Source: Naegleria gruberi
Taxonomy: Eukaryota
Strand: one strand, 5' to 3'
Length of the DNA: 64,000 bases
NCBI GenBank assembly: GCA_000004985.1
Contig: GG738849.1
This document shows positions 3,969 through 64,000 of the stretch, piece by piece (position 1 is the first letter of the stretch; each line of letters opens with the position of its first letter). A program made the position numbers and the translations under genes. Under the pieces are notes generated by a model. It made no database searches. It had not been told where the DNA came from and was given only the letters and a program-made list of their open reading frames with translations.

Positions 3969-5474
3969 ATGTCATCACCCCAATTAGAAAATTACAAGTT
4001 TCAAGTATTTAAAGGACACACTGGTTTGCCAACATGTGAATATTTTGCCAGAGAACAATCCACCAATGAACAAGTTATTAATTTCCTCTCCACAAAATTA
4101 AATGATAGAAAATTAGCAGAAGAATTGGATCAATCCGATACTCTTGCTCACATGAGAAATGAATTCAACTATCCAGATATGATTCCAAAGGAATTAATTT
4201 GTCAAGTTGATGAAAACTCCTCTGATGAATGTGTGGAAAAGAAAATTATTTATTTCTGTGGTAATTCACTTGGACTTCAACCAAAGTGCCTTTCAAAGAA
4301 TATTGAAAAGGAATTACAAAAGTGGGCACATATTGGTGTTGAAGGACATTTCAGTGCATCGTTTGGAACTAACAAATGGTTTGAAGTTGAAGAATCTGTG
4401 AAGAATGCAATGGCTAAGGTTGTTGGAGCTAAACCAATTGAAGTTACTGTTATGAATAGTTTAACTGCTAATTTACAAGTTTTACTCACTTCTTTCTATA
4501 GACCAACTGCACAAAAATACAAGATTTTAGTTGAACAATATCCATTCCCAAGTGATATGCATGCTGTGACCTCTCATGTCAGATGCAGAATTGAAGAATT
4601 GAGAAGTATGTTGGGAAGTCATTTGTCAAGTGATGAAATTGTTGAAAAGTGTATCACTCTTGTTGGTCCAAGAGAAGGAGAAGAAATTATTAGATCTGAA
4701 GATATTGTGGAATGTTTAAAGAGTGATTCCTCTATTGCACTTTCACTTGTTGGAGGAGTTCAATTCATGACTGGTCAATGTTTTGATATGAAAACTATTG
4801 CACAAACTTGTCAAGAGTTGGATATTGTTTGTGGATTTGATTTGGCACATGCTGCTGGTAATATTGATTTGAGACTTCATGATTGGGGAGTTGATTTTGC
4901 ATGTTGGTGTTCTTACAAGTATTTGAATAGTGGACCAGGTGGAATTAGTGGAATTTTTGTACATGAAAAACATTCAAATGAAACTATGGAACAAAGACCA
5001 AGATTTATGGGTTGGTGGGCAAGAGAAAAGGCAACTCGTTTTTCACTTTCGACCAAGTTTGAACCTCAACCAGGTGCAGCTGGATTCCAAATGTCGAATC
5101 CTTGCATTTTAAGTATGACTGCTATTCTTTCGAGTTTGAGAGTTTTTGAAATGGCTGAAAAAGATGGCCAAATAATGAGCGTTTTGAGAAGCAAATCTAA
5201 TTTGTTAACTACTTATTTAGAATTGCTCATTAGACAAGAGTTGAGTGACAAGATCTTTATCCTCACACCATCAAATCCAAATGCTAGAGGTTGTCAATTA
5301 TCTATTAGAGTTTTGCACAAGAATTTGGACTATGTTGATTCTGAACTCAAGAAGAGAGGAGTCATTATTGACATTAGAGAGCCAGATATTATCAGAGTAT
5401 CTCCAACACCTCTCTATAATCAATTTGTTGAAGTTTATGATTTTGTTCAACTTTTGAAAGAAATTTTGAATTAA
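3969..5474 (+). CDS. KYNU: Kynureninase (PLP-dependent, tryptophan catabolism), single exon, 501 aa
   Basis: A full-length ORF with the conserved N-terminal 'IYFCGNSLGLQPK' and the overall length and motif order of kynureninase. Confidence 0.8.
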   Translation: MSSPQLENYKFQVFKGHTGLPTCEYFAREQSTNEQVINFLSTKLNDRKLAEELDQSDTLAHMRNEFNYPDMIPKELICQVDENSSDECVEKKIIYFCGNSLGLQPKCLSKNIEKELQKWAHIGVEGHFSASFGTNKWFEVEESVKNAMAKVVGAKPIEVTVMNSLTANLQVLLTSFYRPTAQKYKILVEQYPFPSDMHAVTSHVRCRIEELRSMLGSHLSSDEIVEKCITLVGPREGEEIIRSEDIVECLKSDSSIALSLVGGVQFMTGQCFDMKTIAQTCQELDIVCGFDLAHAAGNIDLRLHDWGVDFACWCSYKYLNSGPGGISGIFVHEKHSNETMEQRPRFMGWWAREKATRFSLSTKFEPQPGAAGFQMSNPCILSMTAILSSLRVFEMAEKDGQIMSVLRSKSNLLTTYLELLIRQELSDKIFILTPSNPNARGCQLSIRVLHKNLDYVDSELKKRGVIIDIREPDIIRVSPTPLYNQFVEVYDFVQLLKEILN

Positions 5475-27000: not shown

Positions 27001-30000
27001 ATAAAAGCACTTATCAATATCCTTTCTATAGTTTTCATTAGCAGTATATTTGTACAATTCTATGAGGTTGGTCAAAATTTCTTCAATAATTTGCAATGTA
27101 TCACTCTCGTTGGACTCTTTTGCATTGGAGAGAGTTTCTTTGGAATAATAATTAATAAAGTAATTAGTCAGGAGTGGAATAATAATTGAATAAATGTACT
27201 TTTCACTGACATAGTACTCGGCACTAATATCATCATTGTCATCCTGAGGAAGATCATTTCTGAGTGGAGGTAATTGATACGTGACATCTCTTTCTAATTT
27301 ACAAATATTTCTACCCTTGCAGTCAATATAATATTTAATTTCTTCCTTGATTCTCTTGAAGAGACGCCAAATAGTAGTATTGGCAATAACGTCATTGGAT
27401 TTCTTCTCTGTATTAATGTATAATTCGTTGAGCAAGCTCATGAGAGGATCTCTTACTAGAGGAATCAACTTTTCAGATAATAAAGAAATACAATCATCAA
27501 ATGACAAGATGGATTGAATTTTGACTTCTGCCTCCTTTACGGTACCCAAGGTACAATCACTGAGTAAGTATAACATGTTAATGTGATAGTTCAAAAGAGA
27601 ACCTGAAACTTTGTATTCCTTGTTGAGAATTCTTTGTCTTCTCTCCTCTATACCAACATCATCGTTGAAGAGAACAATGATATCTTTTCTTTCTGTTGAA
27701 AGGTAGATGGCAATAATATCTTGGTTTCTTTGTAAATTGGAAGTACCAATTCTCGTTAAAACTCTTAAAAAGTTTAAATGCCAAGACTTTTTACCCAACT
27801 CTCCAATCTTGTCAATATATTTGTGGATAAGTTTTTCGTCCAAGTTGATGAGGAGTTGCTTATTATCTCTCACAATTTCACATAACAATTCACTGGTATC
27901 TAATTTATCGGAGAAGATACCAATCAAAAAGGCAATGTGAGAGAAGAGCTCTGATTGATTTTCAGTATTACTTCTAACAAATTCTGTCAGCACTAAAACC
28001 GCTTTTTGATAAATATTACTCTTGATGTTTTCTGGGTAAATTTTAGTGAGGCAGAGAATCATGAGTTCGTGAATTTGCAAATTTCTCAGAATGCTTTGAG
28101 CACTATGGCCATACTTTTTCACGTCGGCAAGAATTCCCTTGATGGTATTCTTGAATTCCTTATATTCTTTAGAATCTCTACCACCAGAGAAAGTGGCATT
28201 ATTGACCAGATTGTTCAACTTGTTATAATAATTGAAAATAGTTTCATAGGATTGGACTAACTTTGGTGTGGTCAATAAAACTAATCTTTCCAAGTTATTC
28301 TTCAATTCAATATCTTGCATGGATGAACGAAGTAAAATCTTGAGAGCCTTGATTGGAAGTTCATTATTTTGATACTTGAGTAAGAAGAGCATTGTTGGAA
28401 TGAATTTTAAAGGAGGAAGACTTGAATTGCTATGAGTATAATCTGTCTTATCAAATTGGAAGAATGAAATATTCTTAATCTTCATCGCTAAAGTATCCAT
28501 CATTCTGGTGTTATTGTCGTCAGACTTGGCTTTGAAAAAGTCAAGAATCAAACTAATACGATAGTCAATACGCATATCAATAACATAGAGTAGAATGTCA
28601 CAAATTCTATTCTTAATCTTGATAATTAGACGATTGTTTTCCGAATCTACAAAGTTCAACTCTTCGTTGGCATCAGTTGTGGCCTTTAGGGTTGCCAATA
28701 ATAAGTGAATAATGTTGGAAATTTCTTCCTGATCAGTGGTATAACTTTCGTCCAACTTTTTGTGTTCCAAATCATCACCATATGGATTGTAAGCTCTGTA
28801 CAAGAAGAGTTTGTGGCAAATCTTAACTAATTGATAGCTAAACCATTGATCTTGGTTGGTAGTGAGTTTTCTATTGGCAGAAACGAAAAAGTGTTTGTAA
28901 ATAAAGTCCTTCAGTCTCTTATGTTGATATCTGTAATCTTCAAAGGTAGTAGTGGTTCTAAGTGTACTGTTACTGTTTGTCCACTTTCTAGTAAGTTTAA
29001 TTGCAGGTACTTGTTCAATACCAACAGCATCAACATACAAATATTCCATCAAATTGGAAAAAGCAGAACGAATACTCAGAGGAGCAGTTGCATCTTCAAT
29101 ACATTTCAATACCAAATCGTATGGGAAAATTCTTTGAACAAAGGGAATAGCCATTGTATTCTTACCAGAACACAATGAGGCGAAAAATCTGATTGAGCTT
29201 ATCATAAATTCGAAATATTCAGTCTCACAAAAGTGTTTAAGTGATTTGGTTTCACCTGTTGAAGGGATATCCACAATAGGTTTCCCCTCCTCAATTCTTG
29301 GTACAATGAAAAGTCTTGGATGTTTTTGGATGGCATCAGATAAAAGTTCTACCAATCTGTTTTGATTCTTTTGGATTGGTCTTTCCTCACATTTACATAA
29401 AATTGTCAAAAGTTTGAGGTAGAGATCCTTCTTTCTGGTATTTTCAACTAAAAGATTGAAAAATCCCTCAATTTGACTCGATGAAATACTGTCCAATAGC
29501 TCCATATTATCCTTAATCATACCAATCAAAAGTTCTGTATTGGTCTGACCAATAGAGTTGGCAAAATCTTTGGAAGAGTTTAGGACAACTTCTGAAGATT
29601 CTCCCAAGATGTGATTTTGTAATTCGTGGAAATACTTTTCAAAGACGTATAAACTGTTTGGTACGTGAAGAAGTGTAATTTGTCTGATAGATCTGAAACT
29701 ATATTGATAAAGTTGATCCCATTTGTCATCCTTGCCAAATATTTCACCAGAATCCTTGATAACTTGCATAATAGTGTCAATGAGACCAATATCTCTGAAT
29801 GCAGATTGCCTCTCAGGATATGGAATACCTTCTCTTTTCATTACATCTTGTTGAGTACTTTCAGTACAAAATCTGATAATGTGACGTAACATTTCTAAAA
29901 CAGATTCAATGTCAACACGTTGTGGTTGTTGAATGGATGTTTCCTTTTTCATCTTTCTAAAGTTACTCACAATTCTAAAAATTTGATAAACAATAGTAAA

Positions 30001-31814
30001 GTCCTTCAATTCCTTCTCTGAAGCTAAAAAGATAGAAAAAACATCTGTTTCCTTTTTTCTATAATCAAAAGTCAAATCTATAAACATGGTATTATCATTT
30101 ACATTGAACATTTGTGGAGCAAGAGAGCTACGTCTATTTGATACAGAGTCTTTTCTGAAAAGACTTCCACGACCACTTCCAGTATTATTCGAATCATTCT
30201 TTGAAGATCTTTCTGCTGCGTGAAGCCATGTGTCAGTTCTCAAGTGACGAATTCTGACAAGATTTTTTCTTTCAACAGGTTGACCATATCCAACGGCCTC
30301 TGATGCACCAACTTCAGGTGAGTGCAATGTGAAGAGAGTATCGTCGTTGGCCTCTTTGATTAGACCAGGTCTAAGAACTTGTTTTAAGGTTTTCTTAATT
30401 TTCAACCAACCACGTGCTGTTTGAGAACCATCATTAGCATCTGAAACTTCAGTCTTTTGAATACATAGATATTGTCCTGAAGGCAAGTGTTTTAACCTGA
30501 AAGGCACACTATATCTGACGAAACCGCCTTTGAATTTATCCACATTTTCAATCTCGAATAAAGCGTTCACAGATGAGAGAGCATATTTCTCAGTAAATAA
30601 TTTTACAAACTCCTTTTGTTGGAATAAATACCCTTCAGCATCCTTGTGAAACAATCTGATAACATCTCCAGTTTTTAAATAAGCCTTTGCTGAATAGACT
30701 GAATAGGGTGTATACAGATTAATTCTCCAAACATTTGATGAATTAGATGCTGTAGCATTCACTTCATTTCTATTATCTCTATTCACTAAAGGTTTGTTAT
30801 AAACCACTTGTGAAAAGTGGAGAGTATGTTTTGATTTTTCATTGAATAGAACAATCTTATCGGACAATCTTACAGGTTCATTCTCTTGTCTAAATTTGAA
30901 ATGTGGCATAATTTGAAAGAATGTTCTACTTCCACTAGTTGCCAATGAAATTGCAATACAAGCCTTTTCTAATTCTGCATTGGTACGAAGAACTGTTAAA
31001 TATTCTTGTGATTGTACGTGTAATAATTGAATTCTAGCACCGTATGATACTACTTTTCCGAGAGCCTATAATGTATTCCGACAAATCATAGAATGTTATA
31101 TCAAATATGAAATCCAAAAAAAAATTATTTATCCAATTAATCAAATAATTAATAGAATGAACATTTTTTTTCAATTGTTTTTTTAAAAATTATTAATTTG
31201 TGTAACATTCTACTAATACATACCTTTTGGGCTTCTATTATATTTTGTTGTTCTTCTCTTTCCATTTTGATTTTCAACTTTTTAGATTCTACACTCTTCT
31301 CTGGATGTTTATTCGAGTTGATCATTGAGAGAATATTCTTTCCGTACTTCATGGATGTTCTTCTGGAGGCAAATAGAGCCTCTCCCAAGGCACTTGTTGA
31401 AGACATCTTGTTATCCACAAATTCATTATATCTTTTGAGAGCCGAATAGGAACCTCCCTTCATGACTACGAATAAACTTTCCTTTGAACTTGCTGATTGA
31501 CTATCAATTTCTGATGATGAAGTGAATGGAGTTGCTCCACATCGAATTGGATTTAATCCTCTAATTGAAAGATAGGATTTTTCATCTTCGTATACTAGAG
31601 AAATAACATCTCCATATCGAAGGAATAAATTTTGATTAGAATTTGATGAGGATGATGTAATAGATGACGAAACGATGGCAATTGATGAATTACTAGAATT
31701 TGTTGTTGTTGTATTGGAATTGTTGGAGAGGAGAAGAGACTGCTGATTGCTAGAGTTGGCTGCCTGCAATGCCACAGACATCAACATTGAATTGTTCGCT
31801 GAAAGTGCAGACAT
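24040..31814 (-). CDS. ITPR: Inositol 1,4,5-trisphosphate receptor-like Ca2+ release channel of about 2540 aa, in two exons
   Basis: Exon 1 (31814 down to about 31225) carries an N-terminal suppressor or MIR-like segment, 'FLRYGDVISLVYEDEKSYLSIRGLNPIRC'. The intron is GTATGT...TTATAG, about 155 nt long. Exon 2 (31068..24040) continues 'ALGKVVSYGARIQLLHVQSQEYLTVLRTN', which is like human [29 protein letters not shown]. The C-terminus has the selectivity filter 'GLRGGGFWED', 'CFICS', and 'TFEGHIKKEHNMWNYVYFLIYL...EYTGIEQYVAE', which is nearly identical to vertebrate IP3R. Confidence 0.85.
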
Positions 31815-43531: not shown

Positions 43532-45306
43532 TTAACTATTAATTATCTTTTCTGAAATTGTAGAAGGACAATACAGTTTAACCATTTCAGATGAAGGACA
43601 CAACAAGTAAATCAATCCACTTGTGACCAATAACATGGACAAATCAAGAGTGTTGAAATTAACAGATCTATAAAACAAGCCAATCAACACTTGACTTGCT
43701 GCATATTCAATAATAATCAAAATCATTTGTAAAAACACAAACAGAGCAGCCACAAATATTATCATGATAGCTCTTGTAAATTTGATTTGGAATATTGACA
43801 AATTATTAGCCTTTTTCAATTGAATGAATAATTTACCACCAAATACTGAAAAACCAACAACCAAAAAGATGGTCAAAACAACTGTCAGAATGAAAAATGT
43901 CAAATTGAATATTTTTGCTATTGAGGGTAGTCCAATATAAATCAAAGGTAATACCAATAAGAGACCGAACGTGAGTAAGAATGTTGCTAGTATGATTTTC
44001 AAATACTTGTGAATGGTTATTGAATTTGCTCCAACAGAATTTTTGCTATTTGTTTGTAATAACAAGTTGACCCACATTACAAAAATACAAAATAGAGCTG
44101 AGAATAAGCACAGTAAACTGATAGCTCTAAAGAAACCAGATCCTATTCATTAGCAATGATGGTATTCAATTTTAAACTTTCCAATAGAAATTGAATAAAC
44201 TTACCGATTGACGATTTTGCCTGAAACATTCCAACAGTTGCTAAACTTAGTAAATTTTCCAAAGCAGAGAAAATCAAATGCAACATTAGAAACACAATAA
44301 TTAACCATGAAATTGAAATCACCTCTTCCAACACCGCTTTTTGAATTGGCATTAAATTATTCTTCATATTCACTTTTGCATTCTTAACATTTCTGTAAAT
44401 GGTTGGAATCACCAATGTGAAAACACAAACGACCATCAATAACAAAGTCAACACAAAGCAAATAATTGGATAAGCTCTGAAAGTGAATGGAATAAACAAT
44501 GTGGAAAAGTAGTCACACTTGAAAGCATATTGCAATTGACCACATGAACATTGCCATGGAAGAAATACGTCCTGATTCAGTAGGGAAATGCCATGAAGAA
44601 GTGGAATTTCAAGTTCTGATTCTTGATTGTAATCTAATTGATGAACTGTAGAGGCTGTGAGTGAATCTATCGTTAGAGTTTGAAAATTATTGGGTGGTTG
44701 ATTGTAATTACAAAAATTTGCACTCACAAATGTAAAGCATTGTGTAGAATTGAGTGTCGTGTGAAAAGATATAAAGTCATCTCTATTGCAGTATTGACAA
44801 TAGTTGACCAAGTAGGCCAGTTCTGCAATGACTTGTCTTGTTTTTTGACTGGACGAAACATTGTAATGTTGGAGAAGATTATTCTTTACAGTGGAACTAA
44901 TGTTATTGCTCTGTTCAAAACTCTTTCCAATAAGTTGGGGTATACTATTACAAAAAAGTGAGGAACACGAATCAATGTTATATTTTGTAAAGAGTTGATT
45001 AGTCACAACAGCACTACACAGTTCTGAATATTTCGAATCAAAGAAGGGATAAAATAGAGAGAATTGAACCGTATCCTCATATCTATAATTTACAGTTGTT
45101 TCGTTTGGAATAACGATAGAAGTACATGTGAGAAGAGAGTATTGTTGTTGTGATGATGAGGAGGAGGATGGAATGTAGATCATTGAGCAATTACTCACTC
45201 TGTTAGCTCTGGTAAGTGAAGAGTGGACGAAAGAAAGCGAAATATTAAACAAGCAGACGATCAACAAGAGAAAGCAACAAAACACAGGTGAGCAGTGTTT
45301 TTTCAT
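43532..45306 (-). CDS. 7TM receptor-like protein with a signal peptide and a Cys-rich ectodomain of about 240 aa. This is tandem paralogue A, in two exons.
   Basis: ORFs 44143..45306 and 43532..44077 join via ATC G|GTAAGT...GAATAG (about 44205..44143), giving '...IGSGFFRAISLLCLF'. I count seven hydrophobic helices in total. Confidence 0.5.
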
Positions 45307-45539
45307 TCTACTGGTATCAAATGGTTCTGTTTTTTAAAAAACTTGTTTTCTTTGTTCTTTGAAGAAGAGACAATAGATCTTGGGTTTCGCTTTGTTTATA
45401 ATGCTCAAATTTCCACTTCTTTATTTGTAAATCTAGTGTCGGATAGTTCTAAGCGGCTAGCCATATTAGTGACTGAAAGGCAGACCTTAGAAAGAATGGT
45501 TTTTATTTTAAAGTTCAAAATGGTCATGCATGGAAACAC

Positions 45540-47513
45540 TTAATGTTGATAACCTTGTGAGAGCGGTTGGGTTAATGTTGTTTCTCCTGATGTTAATTTG
45601 TAGCTTGTTCCTAATTGATATGGATTCGATTCGGATTGACTTGAATCTTCCTCTGGTTCTACTTGCTTGTTTCTTCCACTCTTTTTGGTAATATAGTCCT
45701 GATATTTCTGTAGAGTAGCATCCTTGATACATGGACAGAATATTTGTCTAAATTCTGCATTTGGTGTCATTTGATAAATGATACCACTAGCCAATAAACA
45801 CATACTTAAATCCAATGTATTGAAATTCACACTTCTATAAAATAAACCAAACACAACTTGACTAGCTCCATATTCAATGATAATGAAAATTATTTCAATT
45901 AGAACAATAGCATTGGTTACCATCAAGAACATGACAAACTTGGTAAATTTGATTTGGAAAATTGATAAATTATTTGCAATCTTGAGTTTAAAATACAGTT
46001 TGGCTCCAAACAAGATGAAGAGAATGGTGAAGAAAATGGTAGAGGCTGCAGTAAGTGTAAAGAATGTCAAGTTAAATGTTTTGGTAAAACCTCTAATTGG
46101 ACTAGATTGAAGACCAGTATAAACAAATGGTAAAATTGAAAGTCCTAAAACAAATAAATAGAATAAACCTAGAGTAATTTTCAAACCAATGTGAACTTTG
46201 ATAGAATCTGTTGAAGTTCTCATTGATCCTAATAGTAAATTTAGCCACATGACTAGAATGGAGAATAGGGCAGAAATTAACCACAATAAACTCAATGATC
46301 TAAAGAATCCAGCACCTATAATTTCAATTTAATAAGTGTGAATGATAAAATAAAATTACTTACCAACTTTTGTCTTGGTTTCAAAAACACTAATGACAGC
46401 AAAATTCAAACCATTTTCAATGGCCAAAAACAAAAAGTAAAAGAATATCATAATGATAATGATCCAACTCAAAGAGAATATTTCCTCAAAAATAGCTTTT
46501 GGATAGGAGGTGAGATTAAACTTCATCTTGTGAGAAATCTTTTTGACATTTCTATAAGCAAGTGGAATGACATTACAAACAATAGTGGCAATGGCAAGCA
46601 ATGTTGGTACAATGAATGCAATAATTGGGTAGGCTTTGAAAGTGAATGGAATAAAATTTGTTGAAAAGTAATCACACTTGAAACCATAATCGTTACCTCC
46701 ACAATAGCAAATCCATGGATACGTATCATCTGAATCAAGTAATGAATGTCCGTGTACTAGTGGTGCTTGAATTGAATTCTTTGGAATTTCAGTTCCATAA
46801 TTACAGAAATTTTTAGCAGTAACATATCTAAAAGGTGAAGGAGTAACTATTGTTGAAATATTTGAATGGAATTCATTAAAGTCAGGTCTAGAACAATATT
46901 GACAATAATTCATAATCCAAGCTAGTTCAGTCACTGCCTTGTTTCTTCCATTTTTTGAAGAGATGCCATAAGTTGAATTCAAGTATGAGAGTGTTGAATT
47001 GACAAGTTTTGGAAAATTGTCAACATATGCTTGATAACAAGAAGAAATTCCATATGTTTTGAAGAGTGTTTCCTTCACATACTTTTCATCACAAAGTTGA
47101 TATTCCTTTGTATCAAAAAACTTGTAGAAAACTGTGAAAAACACAGAATCTTCATATCTAAAAGCAAATGTATTTTCATCCCAAGCTGTAATAGATGAAC
47201 AAGATAATGCCTGTTGATTACCATTATTATTATTAATATTAACATATGTACAACCACTCCAGTCATCACTTGACAACACACTACTATTATTTAAAATTAC
47301 AATTAAACCAATCAATAAAACCAATGATTGAATTTGTTTCCGAAAGTCCTTCATCTTGATGATCATTCTATTGTTGTTGTTGTTGTTACTACTTCTCCCC
47401 GTCATCGGTTGTGTGTTTCTCTTAGGGCAGCAAGAGAGAGCAGGAGGAATTAATTTTACTCGAGTGAAGTAGTGGAATTTTTTAGAAAGTTGTTCTTTCA
47501 AAGTACCAACCAC
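45540..47513 (-). CDS. 7TM receptor-like protein with a Cys-rich ectodomain. This is tandem paralogue B, in two exons.
   Basis: ORFs 46356..47513 and 45540..46295 join via GTT G|GTAAGT...TATAG (about 46355..46304), giving '...VGAGFFRSLSLLWLI'. It is colinear with paralogue A, sharing 'CQYC.R.DF', 'KCDYFST.FIPFT.(R/K)AYPII' and 'NLSIFQIKFT...FGLFYRSVNFNTLDLSM'. Confidence 0.5.
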
Positions 47514-54197: not shown

Positions 54198-57020
54198 TTA
54201 ACTATTTGAAGTACAAGTTCCCATAAATCTCTCAATCAATAACAAAATTGCTGGAAAGAGTGACAATACATTAAAAAGCAGAATACCTTGTCCCAGTATG
54301 ACGATATCAAAAAAGTACTTTTTCACCATCCTTATCTCATGGAATGCCAATGGAAATATACTAACAATAGTTGATAGAGAACAGATTAACAGAGGAAAGG
54401 CCAATAGTGTGTATGTCTTTTTTGTTCTCTTTGTTAGTAAGAATGCCCTTGTGATTTGAAACAGATATTCTGAAAACAAACCAATTTGGAGTGTGAAATT
54501 CATAATCGATAGACCATTAATTGGAATTCCCAATAATCTTAATCCAGCAATTAATTCAAGTACATTGATCAAAGTTAGAAAGCATGTAAGTATTGAGCAA
54601 ATTATAATGCTAATGAAAAGTGATAATTTCCCTTTTTTGATCATTGGAATTTCGAATAAAGATGTGACAAGTGTGGATATAATTGCTACAGATAGAATTG
54701 CAAGTGCAGATATAATTCCAACATTCAATGGATCACTTCCAAATGATTCAAATATCAAATCCATGTCATTGACAATAAATGAGTTTGAGCTCGTTAAACC
54801 AATGGCTGGATAATCACTTGCTATTTGTTTCATAAAAGCTGCATTTTCCTGTACGATTTCATTTGTAACTTGTGAATTTAAAACATTCTTATTTGAAAAA
54901 ACAATTCTGGCAGCTTTCACATCCTTCAACAATGGTTTGGAAATGACAAAACTTGCAAGATTACTAAACGTGTGGTGTTGTGTAAATTCATCCATCCATT
55001 CATTAAATAATTGAGGTGGGATTTTAAATTTGTTAGCTTTGTATTCATCTCTATGTGTGCTAATGAAAAACGTCCAAGTCTTGAAGTAAGAAAACCAATT
55101 GATTTGAGTTTTCATAAAAGGAGGAGGGGATTCAATGATCTTTTCAAGTAAATTAGCCATTGATGTAGATGAGAAATCTATCTGATCAGTTGAATTCTCC
55201 CTAACGTACATAACTAGATAACCAGGGTACTCCAAATCTCCATGATGTGCATGATAATTGTCTAGAAATGAAGTCAACTGAGATGATTTTGCATATAGAT
55301 CTGTCATTGCAAATGGTTCTTCATCAATTGTTGCAATTACAACTACAGAACAAATTAATAAACCAAGGGAAATTAAAATTATGAGAATGTGACTTGAGAA
55401 ATATTTGGGCTTTTCAAATACTATTTTAAATATTGAGTACATTATCTTTTCCACTTTACTACGTGGTATCTCTCCCTTTTGTTCTGTAATTGCTTGTTCT
55501 GTTTCTAATTGTGAAGATAGATGTTGCAAAATTTCTTCATTTTGAGGAGGAACGTTCTCCAGATTTGACAATTCTTCCTCTTCGTTGGTCCTTTGATTTG
55601 TATTGATATTTTGGTCTGTTTCTGGAATTGTTGCATATATTAATTGAATATTCCTTGTATTAAACTTATATTCTAACACTAGTAAAGGCGTAATTCCAAA
55701 TATGGCTGTGAAAAAAAGGAAAACAACAGAAAATAATGTTTGCCATGCAACACTAACATAATGTACCTTATGAAAACGTACAACATACCTAATAGCCATG
55801 GAAATAGGATGCTTCATCACAAATACCACAAAAAGTAAAATGCAACACATAACGGTAAGTGTAAAAATCAATGCAGACAAAACTTCTCTATAATACTTTG
55901 AGGAATTTTTAACAAACTTTCCAAAATTAGTTACATTTTCTTCTATTGGTTTCAACTCTTTCAAATATTCTCTATATCTATTGAAATAGGCCTGTAAAAT
56001 AAACAATCCATCAGAGCCAATTCCCACTAAAAATAAAGGAAGAGCTTGCGCACTGAGTGGATTCAAATTACAATTACACAAAATATTGGCAATACCAAAA
56101 GAGGAGAAAATATCCAATGAAATTAGGATAATACTAATAAATCCAACAAGAATTCTCATAATTATTGAATCGCTCCTTTCTCCTCTCATGAAAACAAGTG
56201 TAGCAACAACCATACCTAGAGTTATTGAAAAACTAATCAAAAACATTGGGCCCACACTCACAAAGGTTTCTGTAATATCTTCACTTAATGAATATTGACA
56301 ATTGAAAAATAATGAAACATTTCTAGGAGTAGAATCCGATTCTATATTCATAGACTTCATTTCTTGAATTTCCTGTTTCATGTTTTTTGTAAACTCTTTC
56401 TCCCAACTGATAATGTCATCTTCAAGGTCTGATACTAAAAGCGCATAATATTTAAATGATTTTGCACTTATAATAGTTGTTTTGATTGGGTTCCACTGTA
56501 CAGATCCCAAAATTGATTCAGCATTTAACAACTCACCATTTGCCAATTTTTTTGGAATTGACAAGGTTCTATGAATGTTCGAATCTTTCATTAAATTGGC
56601 AATATTATAGTTCCAAAAGGCCATAACATCAAGAGCCACGCATCCACTAGATGACATCCTCATGCAAATATCCTCAAACCTTATAATTTTCCCTTCTCTG
56701 TTTGTTGAATTCATTTCAGAAATTCGTGTAATTATTTCGTGAAAATATAAAATTGACTCTTTTGAAATAATGTCCTTCGAATTATCTTCATTCACTGCTA
56801 ATATGATAGTTGCAGCTCTCATATATTTATATTTGGGGAATAAGCTATTCATCAAACCTTTTTTTAATTTTGCAGGTGATGATGAATAGGTGAGGAGAGC
56901 GAATGGATCGGAATCAATTTTTAATTTCCACACACTCAAACCACAAGTTAAAAACAAGATGAATGAGCAAGTGAGAAGACAAGAGATTGGAAATTTTGCT
57001 GGAAGTGTAAGAATGGTCAT
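54198..57020 (-). CDS. Patched/NPC1/Dispatched-like RND-family membrane protein with a sterol-sensing-domain-like region
   Basis: A 940-aa ORF with about 12 TM helices in two bundles, each preceded by a loop. 'FLVGIGSDGLFIL' corresponds to the conserved GxGxDD/N motif of Patched-family proteins. Confidence 0.6.
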   Translation of the reverse strand: MTILTLPAKFPISCLLTCSFILFLTCGLSVWKLKIDSDPFALLTYSSSPAKLKKGLMNSLFPKYKYMRAATIILAVNEDNSKDIISKESILYFHEIITRISEMNSTNREGKIIRFEDICMRMSSSGCVALDVMAFWNYNIANLMKDSNIHRTLSIPKKLANGELLNAESILGSVQWNPIKTTIISAKSFKYYALLVSDLEDDIISWEKEFTKNMKQEIQEMKSMNIESDSTPRNVSLFFNCQYSLSEDITETFVSVGPMFLISFSITLGMVVATLVFMRGERSDSIIMRILVGFISIILISLDIFSSFGIANILCNCNLNPLSAQALPLFLVGIGSDGLFILQAYFNRYREYLKELKPIEENVTNFGKFVKNSSKYYREVLSALIFTLTVMCCILLFVVFVMKHPISMAIRYVVRFHKVHYVSVAWQTLFSVVFLFFTAIFGITPLLVLEYKFNTRNIQLIYATIPETDQNINTNQRTNEEEELSNLENVPPQNEEILQHLSSQLETEQAITEQKGEIPRSKVEKIMYSIFKIVFEKPKYFSSHILIILISLGLLICSVVVIATIDEEPFAMTDLYAKSSQLTSFLDNYHAHHGDLEYPGYLVMYVRENSTDQIDFSSTSMANLLEKIIESPPPFMKTQINWFSYFKTWTFFISTHRDEYKANKFKIPPQLFNEWMDEFTQHHTFSNLASFVISKPLLKDVKAARIVFSNKNVLNSQVTNEIVQENAAFMKQIASDYPAIGLTSSNSFIVNDMDLIFESFGSDPLNVGIISALAILSVAIISTLVTSLFEIPMIKKGKLSLFISIIICSILTCFLTLINVLELIAGLRLLGIPINGLSIMNFTLQIGLFSEYLFQITRAFLLTKRTKKTYTLLAFPLLICSLSTIVSIFPLAFHEIRMVKKYFFDIVILGQGILLFNVLSLFPAILLLIERFMGTCTSNS

Positions 57021-57073
57021 ACGATGATTCAGGTTAATTTTTTTTGTAATTAAGGCGATTGTTATTAATTTAA

Positions 57074-57103
57074 ATATTCATGTTTTTATTGTTTTTCTCA
57101 TAT
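57074..57103. repeat. Left copy of a ~24-30-bp direct repeat bracketing the subtelomeric calpain gene
   Basis: 'atattcatgtttttattgtttttctcat' recurs at 59497..59526 as 'atattttcatgtttttattgtttttctcat'. Confidence 0.6.
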
Positions 57104-57151
57104 GAAACTGTTAGTTTGTCAGTTCCTCTTCGCAGAATTATTATATAATAG

Positions 57152-59296
57152 ATGCTATCAGAACATGTCGCGCCCATGAACTTTTTTATAACCCAGGCAA
57201 GAACTAGAACAGTAGAGACCTTCTTGGAGAACCTTAAAAAAATGTTCAACAACAATGCATTCATTCCGTACGGAGGACAAGCTCCATCATCGAATAATAT
57301 AATTTATAATAGTGGTCCTTATCCAACACAACCAACAATGGATCCTACGGTAAACTATCAACAAGTATCGAATTATGTGTATCCACAATATCCGTATTTT
57401 AACTATGCACAAGTACCAACTACAAGCAATTGGATTCCGAACTCGTATCAGGATCCTAATTTTCAGTACAATGGACAATACCCTCAACAATTTCCTCAAC
57501 ATTATCCTCAACAATTTATTGTACCTAACCAATCAACTGTTCCGATTATCCCTAATCAACAAATAGTTCCGCCTCAACCTCCACAACCAACTTCAAATGT
57601 TGAGCCTCCACAGCCACATATCAAACCTCCTCAACCAAATACAATTGAAAAATCAGAACCAAAGGTTCCAGTGCCTCAACCAACTGTCAAGCCAATAATT
57701 GAACCAAAGCAACCAGTTGTAAAGCCACAACCTGCAAAGCCAATTGATGAATCAAAGCCAATCATAAAACCTCCCCAACCAAAACACCCAATTTCTCAAC
57801 CTGTCATTACATCAATGGTTCAACAAAAACCTGTACCCCTTCCTCAACTAAAGGAACCTTTTACTGATCCAGAATTTCCACCAAATGAAAAATCTCTTGG
57901 TTCCAGTAAGAAGAAAAAGATCAATTTTGGTAAATTTAAAAGATTATCAGAAATATTTGCTAAGCCTCAGTTGGTTGTCGATGGTATTGATGTGTCAGAT
58001 ATATGTCAAGGCTCTTTTGGAGATTGTTGGTTATTGAGCTCATTGGCTACAGTTGCTAGATTTCCACATTATATTGCCCATTTGTTTGTAAATGCAAATA
58101 TCCCTATGGGTCAGTATGTTGTTAGATTATTTTGGAGAAATGAATGGCGTTGCATTGTAGTGGATGACTATGTTCCTGTAGATAAAAATGGCAAGCTAAT
58201 GGTCGTTCACTCAAAGAATGAGAATGAGTTGTGGCCTATTATTGTTGAAAAGGCGATAGCAAAGTTATTAGGAAGTTATGCAAACATTGAAGGAGGTGAG
58301 GGTCCTCTGGGGATGTATTTGTTTACTGGATGCCTTCCTCAATATGAACATATTGTGCAACCGAATTCAAAATCCAGAAATGGAGGCCTTTCATTGCCGG
58401 AAACTTGGCAATGTATTATCAAATCATTTAATGATGGAAATGTTATTGGATTTGGGTCATCTCATAATGAACGTGGAGATGAATATATATCAATAACGGG
58501 AATAGTGGGATCTCATTATTATGCACTTGTGGATGCAATAGAATACAAGGGAAACCAATTGGTGAGATTGAGAAATCCTTGGGGTTCAACTGAATGGAAA
58601 GGTGAGTGGTCAGATTCTTCCAAGCAAATGACTCCACAAGTGAAAAAAGACTTGAACGAACGTGTCACTGAAATGTCCTGCTTGGTACAGCAATTATGTT
58701 GTCACGGTCAACTATTTTGTCGTTCTCAATCTGGTAAAATGAAGAGTGAGGAAGTGAAAAATGATGGCATGTTTTGGATTTCCTTTCAAGATCTTGTTCT
58801 TAGGTTCAATACAATGACCATTGGTCATTTGGTGAATATTGACTATTTATCCAATGAGAGCAATGTTTTTGGGCTTCAATTTAATCATGAACTTCTGCAA
58901 AGAATTCATAAATCATCAACTTATCCTCAAATCAAACAAATCTTCAAGTATGATGCTAAAGACGTGGTAAGAGATGATAAGGTATCTGGGAAATACTTAA
59001 CACAAAGGTTTACACTTTCTATTGATAGAGAATCAAGAGTTATTTTCGCACTGAGGATGATACACAGCGACATGGTGAAGTACAATACTTGTTTACAGCT
59101 GGTTTGTCAGAGTTTGAACATTGTTAGTACAGGTTTATATGTTTTTAACGGAACTACAAGATCTATACCACCAGGAAAGCACCCATTCACAGTTCATTCA
59201 GAGAATAGAGATGGAAAATTTTCTGATATTGAAGTTGTGGTATTTTGGGAAAATAGACAGGCTCATATTGCTATTAGTGAAGACCAACTTAGATAG
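57152..59296 (+). CDS. Calpain paralogue with a Q/P/Y-rich N-terminus, CysPc core and domain-III-like region, single exon
   Basis: 'FTDPEFPPNEKSL...DICQGSFGDCWLLSSLATVA' has the calpain active-site Cys. It is colinear with the 20888..23847 calpain ('YVPV...ELW.I..EKA.AKL.GSY..IEGG', '...LRN(P/T)WG.TEWKG'). Confidence 0.7.
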   Translation: MLSEHVAPMNFFITQARTRTVETFLENLKKMFNNNAFIPYGGQAPSSNNIIYNSGPYPTQPTMDPTVNYQQVSNYVYPQYPYFNYAQVPTTSNWIPNSYQDPNFQYNGQYPQQFPQHYPQQFIVPNQSTVPIIPNQQIVPPQPPQPTSNVEPPQPHIKPPQPNTIEKSEPKVPVPQPTVKPIIEPKQPVVKPQPAKPIDESKPIIKPPQPKHPISQPVITSMVQQKPVPLPQLKEPFTDPEFPPNEKSLGSSKKKKINFGKFKRLSEIFAKPQLVVDGIDVSDICQGSFGDCWLLSSLATVARFPHYIAHLFVNANIPMGQYVVRLFWRNEWRCIVVDDYVPVDKNGKLMVVHSKNENELWPIIVEKAIAKLLGSYANIEGGEGPLGMYLFTGCLPQYEHIVQPNSKSRNGGLSLPETWQCIIKSFNDGNVIGFGSSHNERGDEYISITGIVGSHYYALVDAIEYKGNQLVRLRNPWGSTEWKGEWSDSSKQMTPQVKKDLNERVTEMSCLVQQLCCHGQLFCRSQSGKMKSEEVKNDGMFWISFQDLVLRFNTMTIGHLVNIDYLSNESNVFGLQFNHELLQRIHKSSTYPQIKQIFKYDAKDVVRDDKVSGKYLTQRFTLSIDRESRVIFALRMIHSDMVKYNTCLQLVCQSLNIVSTGLYVFNGTTRSIPPGKHPFTVHSENRDGKFSDIEVVVFWENRQAHIAISEDQLR

Positions 59297-59496
59297 ACAA
59301 CTGGAGAGTAACACTGTGTCATCATCTTCCAAATTTGTACCAATAATCATGTTGTCAATTTACTAAGTTCCGATTTGATGTAGAGTTGATTAATAGCCCT
59401 ATTACAATCAAACAATAAAACAACAATTCATAATGTTTATTATGATATTGAATGTATAATTTCGAGTCTTGTATAATTGTGAAAATCATGGATCTG

Positions 59497-59526
59497 ATAT
59501 TTTCATGTTTTTATTGTTTTTCTCAT
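59497..59526. repeat. Right copy of the direct repeat bracketing the calpain gene
   Basis: The same 24-nt core, 'tcatgtttttattgtttttctcat', as at 57079..57102. Confidence 0.6.
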
Positions 59527-59856
59527 GATGTGGATATTGTCTTCTCACTGAAACATCACGAATAGCATGTCATTCATCCATTCTCTACCAGATAATTATC
59601 TTTTCCAGTAATTTTCACTATTGGATATTTTACTTTTAATATTTGTGATACTTTACTATTATATTCAACAAATAAGGGATGAGAAACATTCATTAGAAGA
59701 AGATAGATTCCCAGTGATATATTCTCCACCAAAAGTCTCTATACAATTTATTACTTCAATATCTGACAAATTAATTGAGATAGAAGGTATTTCATCAACT
59801 CATATCAAAATAGCTGGAGTTGAACTACCTTGAAAAATAATAAATTGTAATTTTAT

Positions 59857-59889
59857 TAGTCTCTAAAATCATAACGACCTTAGAGACTA
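59857..59889. repeat. Perfect 10-bp inverted repeat (hairpin) with a 13-nt loop
   Basis: 'tagtctctaa' (59857-59866) and 'ttagagacta' (59880-59889) are exact reverse complements. Confidence 0.5.
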
Positions 59890-60171
59890 GCTGTTCAACC
59901 ATCTAGTTCTGTTCAGTGTTTGGACGAGTTTGGTTCGGGCTAAGTGGTTGGGACAGCTGTTGCCTTTGGTAGGCAGAAGTGTATTTTTTGTTTTTGATGA
60001 AGGAGTCAGTGGGACGATTGTACCATGATGAATTTTTGTAGCAGTTACTAACATATACTGCGAGAGATTTGTAGATATCTAGGGCCACAGCCTTAGGGAG
60101 TCGTTTGTGATTGGCCCAAATGGACCAATTTTGCTTTGTGCATCGACCGTCATATTCAATGTTAAGGTTTT

Positions 60172-60214
60172 GTTAGGATTCAGAGTTGATTTATTTGGGT
60201 TATTTAAGAGATTA
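60172..60214. repeat. Subtelomeric dispersed 43-bp repeat, copy 1
   Basis: 'gttaggattcagagttgatttatttgggttatttaagagatta' is identical to the copy at 60790..60832. Confidence 0.7.
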
Positions 60215-60789
60215 TGTTTCGATAGTAAACACACAAAATAAAGTTCAACTAATATTTAGACAATTGGGTATTAAAGCTCAGGGGCTGAACCACCTTTAAT
60301 GGTGAAACAGCCTGGAACCTGCTTTGAAGGATGTAAATCTTTATTGAGCAGGTCCCGAGATAATTAAAATTTGTCTGTAAAAAAAAACTTATCAATAGTT
60401 GACCTAAGGATAAGAAAAAAACGTCAGACCAGCGATAAATGTGAATATGAGAAGAAATGTTAGTGAAATAAAGAAAATTTTACAATGTTTCCGAAACATT
60501 GATGAAAACCTCACTCAGAAATTAATCCTTTACCAAAGATTAATGAGCGCAACGGTTTTTGGGAGGGAGTGGTGGGTCCACTCTTTGTTTAGGATGAGAT
60601 GGAGATGATACTGCGTGTTGTTTCCTTTGTGGAGTTCTTGTTATTACCAGACATTTCGAATAATTTTTTGAGCATGGAAAATTTTTAACAACTCGGAATT
60701 GAGGTCGCTTATTAAGCATATCGGAATATTTTCACTTTATTTTGTAATTTACAATCAGAAACAAGTCCATTCCTCATAGGTTGGGGTTG

Positions 60790-60832
60790 GTTAGGATTCA
60801 GAGTTGATTTATTTGGGTTATTTAAGAGATTA
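60790..60832. repeat. Subtelomeric dispersed 43-bp repeat, copy 2
   Basis: Identical to 60172..60214, and both are preceded by a 'ggtt(k)gttagg' lead-in. Confidence 0.7.
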
Positions 60833-60895
60833 CTTAGTGAAGATTCATATCATTGATTATATTTCTTATAATCTATTAATGATGTAAATTAGATG

Positions 60896-60921
60896 GTGTT
60901 GGGTTGGTGGGGTTTGGGTGA
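60896..60921. repeat. Interstitial degenerate telomere-like tract
   Basis: 'gtgttgggttggtggggtttgggtg', built from G2-4T1-3 units about 2.7 kb internal to the terminal array. A weaker copy, 'aggttgggtttggtt', lies at about 61153. Confidence 0.5.
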
Positions 60922-61288
60922 GTTTTATACACTTTCATACAATAGAGTGATATTGAAATGTACCCTTTGATATTTCTGGATGGGTAGTATGATTTAGTGA
61001 TGATTCCGACAATAAAAATCATATATTGTTCATATAATTATCAAGATATTGTATAATTTATTAAATATAAAGTGGGTAATATTGAATATTCTTTGTAGGA
61101 GCGGAAGCACTTATTCTTGTCAGTTGGAGTCAGTATTGTATTAAGGTTGGGTTTGGTTATCGTTTCGTACTCATTGGATCTTCATTATTATTGAAATACA
61201 TAATCAATGATATACATCATTAAATAGGTTACAATCTCAGCTATCCAGTGGGCTATAGATTGTGTATAGTTTCTTATCTAATTATTGA

Positions 61289-62867
61289 NNNNNNNNNNNN
61301 NNNNNNNNNNNNNNNNNNNNNNNNNNNNNNNNNNNNNNNNNNNNNNNNNNNNNNNNNNNNNNNNNNNNNNNNNNNNNNNNNNNNNNNNNNNNNNNNNNNN
61401 NNNNNNNNNNNNNNNNNNNNNNNNNNNNNNNNNNNNNNNNNNNNNNNNNNNNNNNNNNNNNNNNNNNNNNNNNNNNNNNNNNNNNNNNNNNNNNNNNNNN
61501 NNNNNNNNNNNNNNNNNNNNNNNNNNNNNNNNNNNNNNNNNNNNNNNNNNNNNNNNNNNNNNNNNNNNNNNNNNNNNNNNNNNNNNNNNNNNNNNNNNNN
61601 NNNNNNNNNNNNNNNNNNNNNNNNNNNNNNNNNNNNNNNNNNNNNNNNNNNNNNNNNNNNNNNNNNNNNNNNNNNNNNNNNNNNNNNNNNNNNNNNNNNN
61701 NNNNNNNNNNNNNNNNNNNNNNNNNNNNNNNNNNNNNNNNNNNNNNNNNNNNNNNNNNNNNNNNNNNNNNNNNNNNNNNNNNNNNNNNNNNNNNNNNNNN
61801 NNNNNNNNNNNNNNNNNNNNNNNNNNNNNNNNNNNNNNNNNNNNNNNNNNNNNNNNNNNNNNNNNNNNNNNNNNNNNNNNNNNNNNNNNNNNNNNNNNNN
61901 NNNNNNNNNNNNNNNNNNNNNNNNNNNNNNNNNNNNNNNNNNNNNNNNNNNNNNNNNNNNNNNNNNNNNNNNNNNNNNNNNNNNNNNNNNNNNNNNNNNN
62001 NNNNNNNNNNNNNNNNNNNNNNNNNNNNNNNNNNNNNNNNNNNNNNNNNNNNNNNNNNNNNNNNNNNNNNNNNNNNNNNNNNNNNNNNNNNNNNNNNNNN
62101 NNNNNNNNNNNNNNNNNNNNNNNNNNNNNNNNNNNNNNNNNNNNNNNNNNNNNNNNNNNNNNNNNNNNNNNNNNNNNNNNNNNNNNNNNNNNNNNNNNNN
62201 NNNNNNNNNNNNNNNNNNNNNNNNNNNNNNNNNNNNNNNNNNNNNNNNNNNNNNNNNNNNNNNNNNNNNNNNNNNNNNNNNNNNNNNNNNNNNNNNNNNN
62301 NNNNNNNNNNNNNNNNNNNNNNNNNNNNNNNNNNNNNNNNNNNNNNNNNNNNNNNNNNNNNNNNNNNNNNNNNNNNNNNNNNNNNNNNNNNNNNNNNNNN
62401 NNNNNNNNNNNNNNNNNNNNNNNNNNNNNNNNNNNNNNNNNNNNNNNNNNNNNNNNNNNNNNNNNNNNNNNNNNNNNNNNNNNNNNNNNNNNNNNNNNNN
62501 NNNNNNNNNNNNNNNNNNNNNNNNNNNNNNNNNNNNNNNNNNNNNNNNNNNNNNNNNNNNNNNNNNNNNNNNNNNNNNNNNNNNNNNNNNNNNNNNNNNN
62601 NNNNNNNNNNNNNNNNNNNNNNNNNNNNNNNNNNNNNNNNNNNNNNNNNNNNNNNNNNNNNNNNNNNNNNNNNNNNNNNNNNNNNNNNNNNNNNNNNNNN
62701 NNNNNNNNNNNNNNNNNNNNNNNNNNNNNNNNNNNNNNNNNNNNNNNNNNNNNNNNNNNNNNNNNNNNNNNNNNNNNNNNNNNNNNNNNNNNNNNNNNNN
62801 NNNNNNNNNNNNNNNNNNNNNNNNNNNNNNNNNNNNNNNNNNNNNNNNNNNNNNNNNNNNNNNNNNN
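61289..62867. other. Assembly gap, a run of 1579 N
   Basis: The N run is contiguous. ORF-track entries across it, translated as X, are artefacts. Confidence 0.95.
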
Positions 62868-63510
62868 TACTCATCGAATGGAGCATGTTCTTATGTATAT
62901 TGTTGGTTGAAGTGATGTATTTGATAGAGTAGGTCTGACTTGTCTTTCCTTAATCAACTTTGTAAAGTCAACATTTACATTCCCATGGTACCATTTCTGA
63001 TTACTAGGACATGAAATTAAATTCTATATCATTATAGATCATCTACATTATGATGGTAAAGTTTCAATAGGTGGTCCTTTTTCCAGATTTCCACATATTC
63101 ATACAAGTTCATACAAGTTGACCCTATGATGGTTGAGGGAAGAAATCTTTAAATATGAAAGTTAAAATAAATTTGATATTCGATGTTTACTCATCAAATG
63201 GAACATTTTCATGTCAGGATTCAATATGTTTTCATGAGAAACTCAAAAGTTATTGTTGACCTATTGTACCTCACAACTTCCCTTTTCACTTGATACTATA
63301 CTTTTATACCTACAGACATGAACTATTGAAATTTCATATGAAAGTGATTATAAATGTTGTTAATGATGATATAAACTATATAATCTCATTAAAGGATTTT
63401 GAAATTATCATTCTTCCTATGGTTTCATTTTATAATTTTTAATCTGACATTATTTACAAAGTTAATATTTTATAAATTGAAAAACTAAATATAATACATT
63501 GTTCTACTCA
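62868..63510. repeat. Degenerate subtelomeric repeat with a period of about 320 bp, covering at least two units
   Basis: 'tactcatcgaatggagcatgttcttatgtat' (62868..) matches 'tactcatcaaatggaacattttcatgtcagg' (63189..) imperfectly. A third partial copy, 'tactcatcatttacaatcgaatg', lies near 63503. Confidence 0.4.
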
Positions 63511-63615
63511 TCATTTACAATCGAATGTATAATATTCAATAATTTGGGCTAGGGTTTGAACTTTGAAACATTGGGTCTGGTATTTCAATTTTAGGTTCAA
63601 AGGTTTAGATTTTTA

Positions 63616-64000
63616 GGTTTGGGTTTGGGTTTGGGTTTGGGTTTGGGTTTGGGTTTGGGTTTGGGTTTGGGTTTGGGTTTGGGTTTGGGTTTGGGTTTGG
63701 GTTTGGGTTTGGGTTTGGGTTTGGGTTTGGGTTTGGGTTTGGGTTTGGGTTTGGGTTTGGGTTTGGGTTTGGGTTTGGGTTTGGGTTTGGGTTTGGGTTT
63801 GGGTTTGGGTTTGGGTTTGGGTTTGGGTTTGGGTTTGGGTTTGGGTTTGGGTTTGGGTTTGGGTTTGGGTTTGGGTTTGGGTTTGGGTTTGGGTTTGGGT
63901 TTGGGTTTGGGTTTGGGTTTGGGTTTGGGTTTGGGTTTGGGTTTGGGTTTGGGTTTGGGTTTGGGTTTGGGTTTGGGTTTGGGTTTGGGTTTGGGTTTGG
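63616..64000 (+). repeat. Terminal telomere-type array (GGGTTT)n of about 64 perfect units, with the G-rich strand running 5'->3' toward the end. It is truncated by the window edge.
   Basis: A perfect hexamer array from 63616 to the last base. A degenerate transition, 'gggctagggtttgaac...ggtttagatttttaggtttggg', precedes it at 63548..63615. Confidence 0.9.

Follow-up and report, generated by a model that had tools for sequence, protein, structure and literature searches.

A probable right-hand chromosome end of Naegleria gruberi, with a TTTGGG array, a degenerate transition and internal telomere-like tracts

Does the hexamer array at the edge of a 64,000-nucleotide stretch of Naegleria gruberi DNA (contig GG738849.1 of assembly GCA_000004985.1; hereafter the window) mark the end of a chromosome, and what kind of DNA lies next to it? 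A first-pass annotation, made from the letters of the sequence, had read this region as a chromosome end composed of a T3G3 telomere, a transition, a subtelomere and interstitial telomere-like DNA. Every test that we ran agreed with this central reading, while the dictyostelid framing of the annotation did not hold and the ~320-bp repeat that it described is weakly supported. The best explanation, to which we assign a probability of roughly 0.88, is that the window closes with the right-hand end of an N. gruberi nuclear chromosome, in the form given by an 850,158-bp scaffold of the JGI draft, and that the (TTTGGG)n array constitutes its actual telomere. The true terminal position is something we infer from the orientation of the array, the architecture around it, the placement of the window and the literature, the sequence being visible to position 64000. 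The features discussed below are collected in Table 1.

Table 1. Features at the right-hand end of the window, ordered from the last gene to the window edge.
Feature	Position	Strand	Basis or property
Calpain-family cysteine protease, 714 aa, last gene before the end	57152..59296	+	Peptidase_C2, E = 4e-65
Proximal gene-free subtelomeric DNA	59297..61288		32% GC, + strand G > C
49-nt direct repeat, copy 1 (holds 43-mer 60172-60214)	60166..60214	+	Repeat search
Interstitial telomere-like tract, GGTTGGGGTTGGTT	60779..60792	+	Motif scan and similarity to (TTTGGG)n
49-nt direct repeat, copy 2 (holds 43-mer 60790-60832)	60784..60832	+	Repeat search
Interstitial telomere-like G/T-only tract, TGGTGTTGGGTTGGTGGGGTTTGGGTG	60894..60920	+	27 nt; motif scan
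Interstitial telomere-like G/T-only tract, GGTTGGGTTTGGTT	61145..61158	+	Motif scan and similarity to (TTTGGG)n
Assembly gap, 1,579 N	61289..62867		Read from sequence
Distal subtelomeric block	62868..63542	+	27.8% GC; head-motif copies; ORF scan
Telomere-like transition, degenerate	63543..63617	+	Best 75-nt window versus (TTTGGG)n
Telomeric array, TTTGGG units	63618..64000	+	No mismatch over 383 nt; TRF

The identity of the host follows from the genes. Four open reading frames (ORFs) of the window are 100% identical to annotated proteins of N. gruberi (Heterolobosea) from one scaffold of 850,158 bp, the NEG-M scaffold with NAEGRDRAFT_30605, _56956, _56957 and _63139. The first reading had seen dictyostelid-like genes in this DNA; the four ORFs are instead exact N. 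gruberi proteins, which rules out a dictyostelid origin. The contrast with the rDNA-derived ends of Dictyostelium discoideum, put forward as a clue to the taxon, is irrelevant for a Naegleria gruberi host. The D. discoideum ends share with the present one only that they are chromosome ends of a protist; they belong to another organism, and here a simple hexamer array stands at the end. Additionally, an Rfam scan of positions 55000-64000 up to E = 1 returned no match, rRNA included, and thus gave no sign of an rDNA-derived end of the Dictyostelium type. A ciliate origin (Paramecium), suspected from the G3T3 repeat, is ruled out by the standard-code ORFs and the N. gruberi protein matches; with the standard genetic code, reading frames stay open over as many as 2,341 aa. 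Recognizing the window as an N. gruberi scaffold end and not as dictyostelid DNA is of value mainly as a correct label.

The array itself comprises 63.8 error-free TTTGGG units (383 nt) reaching the window edge, as the run of perfect T3G3 hexamers described earlier had implied, and TRF calls it at 63612-64000 with period 6, 64.8 copies and 99% matches. TTTGGG is found on the + strand, with the G-rich strand running 5'->3' outward to the 3' window edge. The locus shows three features of a canonical telomerase-type telomere: a short T/G-rich unit (5-8 nt in such telomeres) repeated in tandem, a G-rich strand directed 5'->3' toward the end of the molecule, and degeneracy at the proximal border only, with the distal array free of errors. 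The degenerate border had also been noticed in the first reading, and the 75 nt that it occupies form the most telomere-like window, scoring 17 against (TTTGGG)n and ranking first above 2,473 other 75-nt windows. Its variant units are TTTGGG, CTAGGG, TTGGG, TTTTAGG, TTTAGA and TTTTTAGG, with non-telomeric bases between them.

An array that ends at a window edge may, in principle, be an internal TTTGGG microsatellite or a fossil telomere with unique sequence beyond the window. The window shows nothing past 64000, and in a metagenome comparison set of 120 loci containing (TTTGGG)8 the array was internal in 67, mostly on GC-rich contigs. We nevertheless regard an internal position as very unlikely for the present array, which is perfect over 383 nt, degenerate on the proximal side only and preceded by an AT-rich, gene-free flank. 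N. gruberi arrays are, moreover, placed at scaffold termini in the literature (PMC3622300). By our own estimate, an internal 389-nt array would meet the edge of a random 64-kb window in ~0.6% of cases, which favours a window anchored at the scaffold end. The probability that the array derives from a cloning vector or an adapter, a concern raised with the first reading, or from faulty assembly is practically negligible, and no point in support of such an origin was found. No vector or plasmid similarity was detected among 72,556 plasmid records, the array grades via degenerate units into genomic DNA, and in unrelated assemblies of metagenomes TTTGGG stands at the ends of many independent contigs.

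The DNA inside the telomere has the character of a subtelomere. Proximal to the transition lie ~4.3 kb of AT-rich, gene-free DNA, and distal to position 59296 no genes, tRNAs or Rfam RNAs were found; the last gene before it encodes a calpain-family protease whose closest matches are Naegleria paralogues with 54% identity. In the proximal part (59297-61288) ORFs do not exceed 81 aa, and neither a tRNA nor an Rfam match was found; the distal block (62868-63542) has no ORF of at least 60 aa.

Within the proximal part, a telomere-like tract had been reported at 60896. It proved to be 27 nt of G and T only, at 60894-60920, and ranks second among the windows compared with (TTTGGG)n; two further tracts, at 60779 and 61145, accompany it. 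All three have the same orientation as the telomere and are the highest-ranked (TTTGGG)n-like windows after the junction. The motif GGTT[TG]GG occurs five times in 59301-61288 versus five times in the other 59.3 kb, which corresponds to a ~30-fold enrichment. The proximal DNA thus holds short degenerate tracts, away from the terminus and beyond chance, as expected of interstitial telomeric sequences. The internal G/T tracts are probably interstitial remnants of telomeric DNA, as is typical of subtelomeres.

The same region contains the two identical 43-mers, 618 bp apart, that had been picked out in the first reading and for which 0 are expected in shuffles. The full direct repeat extends to 49 nt, with 96% identity between copies, sharp edges and copy 2 located 618 nt downstream of copy 1, and the sequences flanking the two copies are dissimilar (z = 0.9 and -0.5). 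The tract at 60779-60792 overlaps the 5' end of copy 2. A metagenome scan with the 43-mer gave 0 matches.

For the ~320-bp degenerate repeat proposed distal to the gap, the spacing was recovered and the repeat body was not. A head motif of ~26 nt, TACTCATC[GA]AATGGA[GA]CAT.TTC, is present at 62868 and 63188 and, in a looser form, at 63505 and 61168; it recurs at intervals of 320 nt (62868->63188) and 317 nt (63188->63505). The bodies of the units show no clear likeness. When the two ~320-nt units are aligned locally, the best match extends over the first 28 nt only, and its score of 30 is within the range of shuffles (22.4 +/- 3.1, maximum 33); a permissive global alignment scored above shuffles, at 31 against 13.9 +/- 3.6, with one shuffle reaching 33. 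MAFFT alignment of the units revealed no conserved body, and both TRF and a general repeat search missed the repeat. To speak of a ~320-bp subtelomeric repeat is to overstate a weakly supported pattern.

The 1.6-kb N gap seen in the first reading measures 1,579 nt (61289-62867) and lies between the telomere and the genes, such that the telomere-bearing distal contig (62868-64000, 1.1 kb) is linked to the rest of the scaffold solely across it. The idea from the first reading that the gap is a collapsed repeat array is speculative. Since the telomere contig and the gene-bearing part meet only over this gap, the assignment to a chromosome arm depends on the read pairing of the assembler. A real N. 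gruberi telomere could, in this way, have been placed on the wrong arm, if the read pairs that linked the 1.1-kb contig fall in subtelomeric repeats common to several chromosomes. Past the gap, the contig starts exactly at the TACTCATC motif and a looser copy is located 121 nt before the gap; the presence of the motif at or near both sides would be compatible with the assembly having broken inside repeated DNA. However, the proximal side is subtelomeric by itself, being gene-free and holding three telomere-like tracts in the same orientation, and the visible repeat units are too diverged to mislead a Sanger assembler. We consider misplacement improbable and retain the end of this scaffold as the preferred location of the telomere.

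Comparison with known telomere repeats leads back to the same organism. Fulneckova et al. (2013, Genome Biol Evol, PMC3622300) proposed TTTGGG, on the evidence of scaffold ends, as the candidate telomere repeat of N. gruberi, and the TTTGGG telomere of this species is, in that sense, already known. Organism, repeat unit and type of evidence (JGI scaffold-terminus arrays) coincide, and the scaffold termini behind that proposal almost certainly include the end of the window. For N. gruberi the main text of that paper gives the repeat unit alone; relative to it, the transition, the internal G/T tracts and the 49-nt repeat described here are added detail and not a different phenomenon. The TTTGGG cap agrees with the 2013 proposal and raises no new question. 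In the literature searched, no experimental data on Naegleria telomeres or telomerase (Bal31 sensitivity, TRAP, telomerase RNA) were found, and the repeat is so far an in-silico candidate. An end resolved together with its transition and subtelomere is useful for the design of probes and primers, and for checking future telomere-to-telomere assemblies.

Compared with other systems, the array resembles the telomeres of Tetrahymena (TTGGGG) and human (TTAGGG) in its 6-nt T/G-rich unit, its outward G-strand and its degenerate proximal border, and differs from them by one base, as their G or A is a T in the TTTGGG of N. gruberi. Interstitial degenerate telomere tracts between blocks are a feature of yeast X/Y' junctions and of human subtelomeres, and sharing between chromosome ends is the defining trait of both systems. 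The N. gruberi end is similar to them in that, a few kb inward, short degenerate tracts with the orientation of the telomere stand beside duplicated elements in gene-poor DNA, but its scale is far smaller: the zone measures ~4 kb, the tracts are 14-27 nt long and a single repeat of 49 nt is present. Paramecium macronuclear telomeres are an irregular G3T3/G4T2 (TTTGGG/TTGGGG) mixture (PMC3082875, PMC3408717). TTTGGG is one of the two Paramecium units, and both are G-rich hexamers capable of forming G-quadruplexes (PMC3082875, PMC3408717); the Paramecium mixture, however, arises from an error-prone telomerase, whereas not one TTGGGG was found among the 63.8 units (383 nt) of the present array, and the host is a heterolobosean with standard-code genes and no ciliate code (TAA/TAG as Gln).

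If the array is the telomere proper, telomerase would extend its G-rich 3' end by copying a CCCAAA-type template in the RNA subunit, and telomere-capping proteins would then bind the array. A single faithful template would fit, since the repeat is homogeneous. The TTTGGG repeats may also form G-quadruplexes; (GGGTTT)3GGG forms stable ones, as do other telomeric repeats (PMC3082875). The 75-nt transition would represent the proximal stretch of the array that is oldest and has mutated, renewal by telomerase having ended there. The G/T tracts of the same orientation are probably left over from earlier telomeres or from recombination in the subtelomere, one of them being attached to the duplicated 49-nt element.

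A bolder and rather unlikely version of this history would have the G/T tracts and the 49-nt repeat as fossils of repeated truncation, telomere healing and later distal recombination, with the 49-nt element being a conserved telomere-associated sequence common to N. gruberi ends, which might serve, for instance, in protein binding or as an origin. Should the fossils of truncation and healing be real, they would offer an initial view of the dynamics of chromosome ends in Heterolobosea, a group in which telomere biology is experimentally unstudied.

The metagenome comparison also gave a view of TTTGGG arrays elsewhere. Compared by blastn and tblastx, the window and the 120 (TTTGGG)8 loci showed no similarity. 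Arrays at metagenome contig ends were in telomere orientation in 42 cases versus 11 in the wrong orientation, and in the data set JAESGV01 all 20 of 20 contig-end arrays were in telomere orientation; these counts speak for the telomeric reading of the N. gruberi array. An AFG1-like ATPase from JAESGV01 had its best named matches in Acrasis kona (43%) and glomeromycete fungi (~37%).

The feature is very probably a chromosome end, as the first-pass annotation read it, but that annotation was wrong about the group of organisms. The T3G3 array that it described does run to the window edge free of any deviation (Table), with the last base of the window still inside it when 58000-64000 is read directly, and Tandem Repeats Finder (TRF) reports 64.8 copies of period 6 at 63612-64000, with 99% matches. 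As TTTGGG lies on the + strand, the G-rich strand points outwards 5' to 3', the orientation typical of telomeres. The degenerate units said to precede the array are also present: similarity to (TTTGGG)n was computed and ranked for 2,473 75-nt windows across the 64 kb, and the transition ranks first.

Table. Features of the chromosome end, of the remaining window and of metagenome loci with TTTGGG arrays.
Feature	Coordinates	Strand	Details
Telomeric array	63618-64000	+	383 nt, 63.8 TTTGGG units, zero deviations
Transition	63543-63617		Variant units TTTGGG, CTAGGG, TTGGG, TTTTAGG, TTTAGA and TTTTTAGG, interspersed with other bases
N gap	61289-62867		1,579 nt
G/T-only tract	61145-61158		Orientation as terminal array
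G/T-only run	60894-60920		27 nt, orientation as terminal array
G/T-only tract	60779-60792		Orientation as terminal array
49-nt repeat	copies at 60166 and 60784		96% identity, contains the 43-mers
Calpain-family protease	57152-59296	+	714 aa, Peptidase_C2, E = 4e-65; last gene before telomere
IP3/ryanodine-receptor-like channel	24043-30909	-	2,289 aa; MIR, RIH, RIH_assoc; 30-40 kb from end
Second calpain	21823-23844	+	Peptidase_C2 + Calpain_III; 30-40 kb from end
ORFs of metagenome locus L042	1-3762, 5671-8631, 8705-11509	+, -, -	By eye Pol-like or PPR-like
ORF of metagenome locus L108	3557-7603	+	Long, repeat-rich, by eye PPR-like
Capped loci of metagenome data set JAESGV01			L003, L012, L013, L019, L038, L039, L041, L042, L050, L057, L059, L064, L069, L080, L085, L087, L088, L093, L101, L108

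The array has the correct outward orientation, its distal part is perfect with degeneracy confined to the proximal part, and its flank is AT-rich and gene-free. A random window edge would fall inside a 389-nt array with an estimated chance of ~0.6%, which suggests that the window edge coincides with the end of the scaffold. With sequence seen up to base 64000, this indirect evidence is consistent with a truly terminal array. A plasmid/vector search with 62868-63700 gave zero matches.

An ordinary telomere is the best-supported account of these sequence features. Following general telomere biology for the enzymology and history, telomerase would lengthen the 3' end of the G-strand from a CCCAAA-type RNA template, and the uniform units are consistent with a single faithful template. 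Proximal units would escape renewal and build up mutations, which would account for the degeneracy of the transition zone, while the internal G/T tracts would be interstitial telomeric sequences derived from earlier ends or from subtelomeric recombination.

The feature is real and its repeat unit already described: Fulneckova et al. 2013 placed such arrays at N. gruberi scaffold termini in a search of genome assemblies in which scaffold ends were inspected by eye where standard repeat strings failed, and the original N. gruberi genome paper is described as lacking telomere information (PMC3622300). In a comparison with known telomere repeats, TTTGGG matches the candidate unit reported there for N. 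gruberi. No later Naegleria telomere or telomerase data were found in the literature searched, and the novelty of the subtelomeric details is limited to description. The telomeres of Paramecium are built from TTTGGG and a second unit, TTGGGG, which an error-prone telomerase adds in irregular order (PMC3082875, PMC3408717), whereas the present array includes zero TTGGGG units. In vitro, (GGGTTT)3GGG forms a stable G-quadruplex (PMC3082875).

Scanning metagenome contigs for (TTTGGG)8 gave at least 120 loci, none of which, among those listed, resembles the window. Among the loci listed, the array stands at a contig end in telomere orientation in 42 cases versus 11 in the wrong orientation. All 20 JAESGV01 contigs among the loci listed are capped by near-pure TTTGGG in the correct orientation (in 4 of the 20, the proximal edge of the array includes a few variant units), with an abrupt junction to unrelated unique DNA, sometimes directly beside coding DNA. 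Judged from these sequences, at least one environmental eukaryote uses TTTGGG as a terminal repeat. GC of the capped contigs ranges from 20 to 39%, so they may come from more than one organism. The ORF adjoining the telomere of L042 is retrotransposon Pol-like by eye, with protease, reverse transcriptase and integrase motifs. Further, L042 and L108 include long repeat-rich ORFs that by eye are PPR-like with a DYW-type C-terminus (…HSEKLA…C.DCH…), a domain that besides plants is known from a few protists, including Naegleria and Acrasis. Together with an AFG1-like ATPase of JAESGV01 whose top named matches are Acrasis kona (43% identity) and glomeromycete fungi (~37%), the PPR-like ORFs give at most a weak hint of a heterolobosean host.

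Distal to 59296, ORFs do not exceed 81 aa, no tRNA was found, a search of Rfam at E values up to 1 gave no match, and GC drops to 32%, then 28%. The telomere-like tract noted at 60896 proved to be one of three G/T tracts, which are the top (TTTGGG)n-like windows of the 64 kb, second only to the junction; the 2 kb of 59301-61288 carry five GGTT[TG]GG motifs, as many as the other 59.3 kb. The two identical 43-mers (starts 60172 and 60790) and the 1.6-kb gap were likewise borne out, with zero such pairs expected from shuffles; the flanks of the surrounding 49-nt repeat are no more similar on either side than shuffled sequence.

The claimed ~320-bp repeat was overstated. A ~26-nt head motif starting TACTCATC does recur, with clear copies at 62868 and 63188 and looser ones at 63505 and 61168, but neither TRF nor the repeat finder reported the repeat, and a MAFFT alignment revealed no conserved body between units. 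The best local match of 62868-63188 to 63189-63520 is the first 28 nt alone, and its score of 30 lies within the shuffle range (mean 22.4, sd 3.1, maximum 33). A permissive global alignment scored 31, above shuffles (13.9 +/- 3.6; one reached 33) and comparisons with an adjacent AT-rich segment (14-15), so a very old duplication is possible. The post-gap contig begins exactly with the head motif, and the looser copy at 61168 lies 121 nt ahead of the gap, which may mean that the assembly broke within repetitive sequence. About five units of 320-340 nt would fit into the 1,700 nt that separate these two copies.

A contig of its own, 1.1 kb long, carries the telomere together with 0.75 kb of its flank and is linked to the genes solely across the gap. 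This contig is a telomere whether or not it belongs to this arm, an assignment that depends on the assembler's read pairs. A gross misjoin is unlikely, since the proximal side looks subtelomeric on its own.

The genes claimed to be dictyostelid-like are those of Naegleria. The kynureninase ORF (3969-5471, +) is identical to N. gruberi XP_002681707.1 at 431/431 residues, and three more ORFs match XP_002681708.1, XP_002681874.1 and XP_002681875.1 exactly. All four proteins are recorded on a single 850,158-bp contig, which on sequence identity makes the window part of a scaffold from the published draft genome of N. gruberi NEG-M; the sized N gap would be in keeping with such a draft. The terminal calpain is closest to N. 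gruberi and N. lovaniensis paralogues (54% identity); the protein collection searched includes neither an identical nor a nearly identical sequence. As its neighbours match N. gruberi proteins exactly, this gene is probably missing from the published annotation.

The annotated kynureninase (431 aa) begins at residue 71 of a 501-aa ORF; its start was probably placed too far downstream, since homologues in N. lovaniensis and Willaertia span 99% of the longer ORF. The remaining window is dense in long ORFs, open under the standard code and up to 2,341 aa, at 33% GC. In each of two adjacent loci, 43535-45333 (-) and 45543-47513 (-), an ORF of ~390 aa precedes a multi-pass membrane ORF of ~200-260 aa, and neither locus has a Pfam match. 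The loci are visibly alike, sharing motifs such as DYFST.FIPFTF.AYPII and LSIFQIKFT, and look like a tandem-duplicated two-exon gene.
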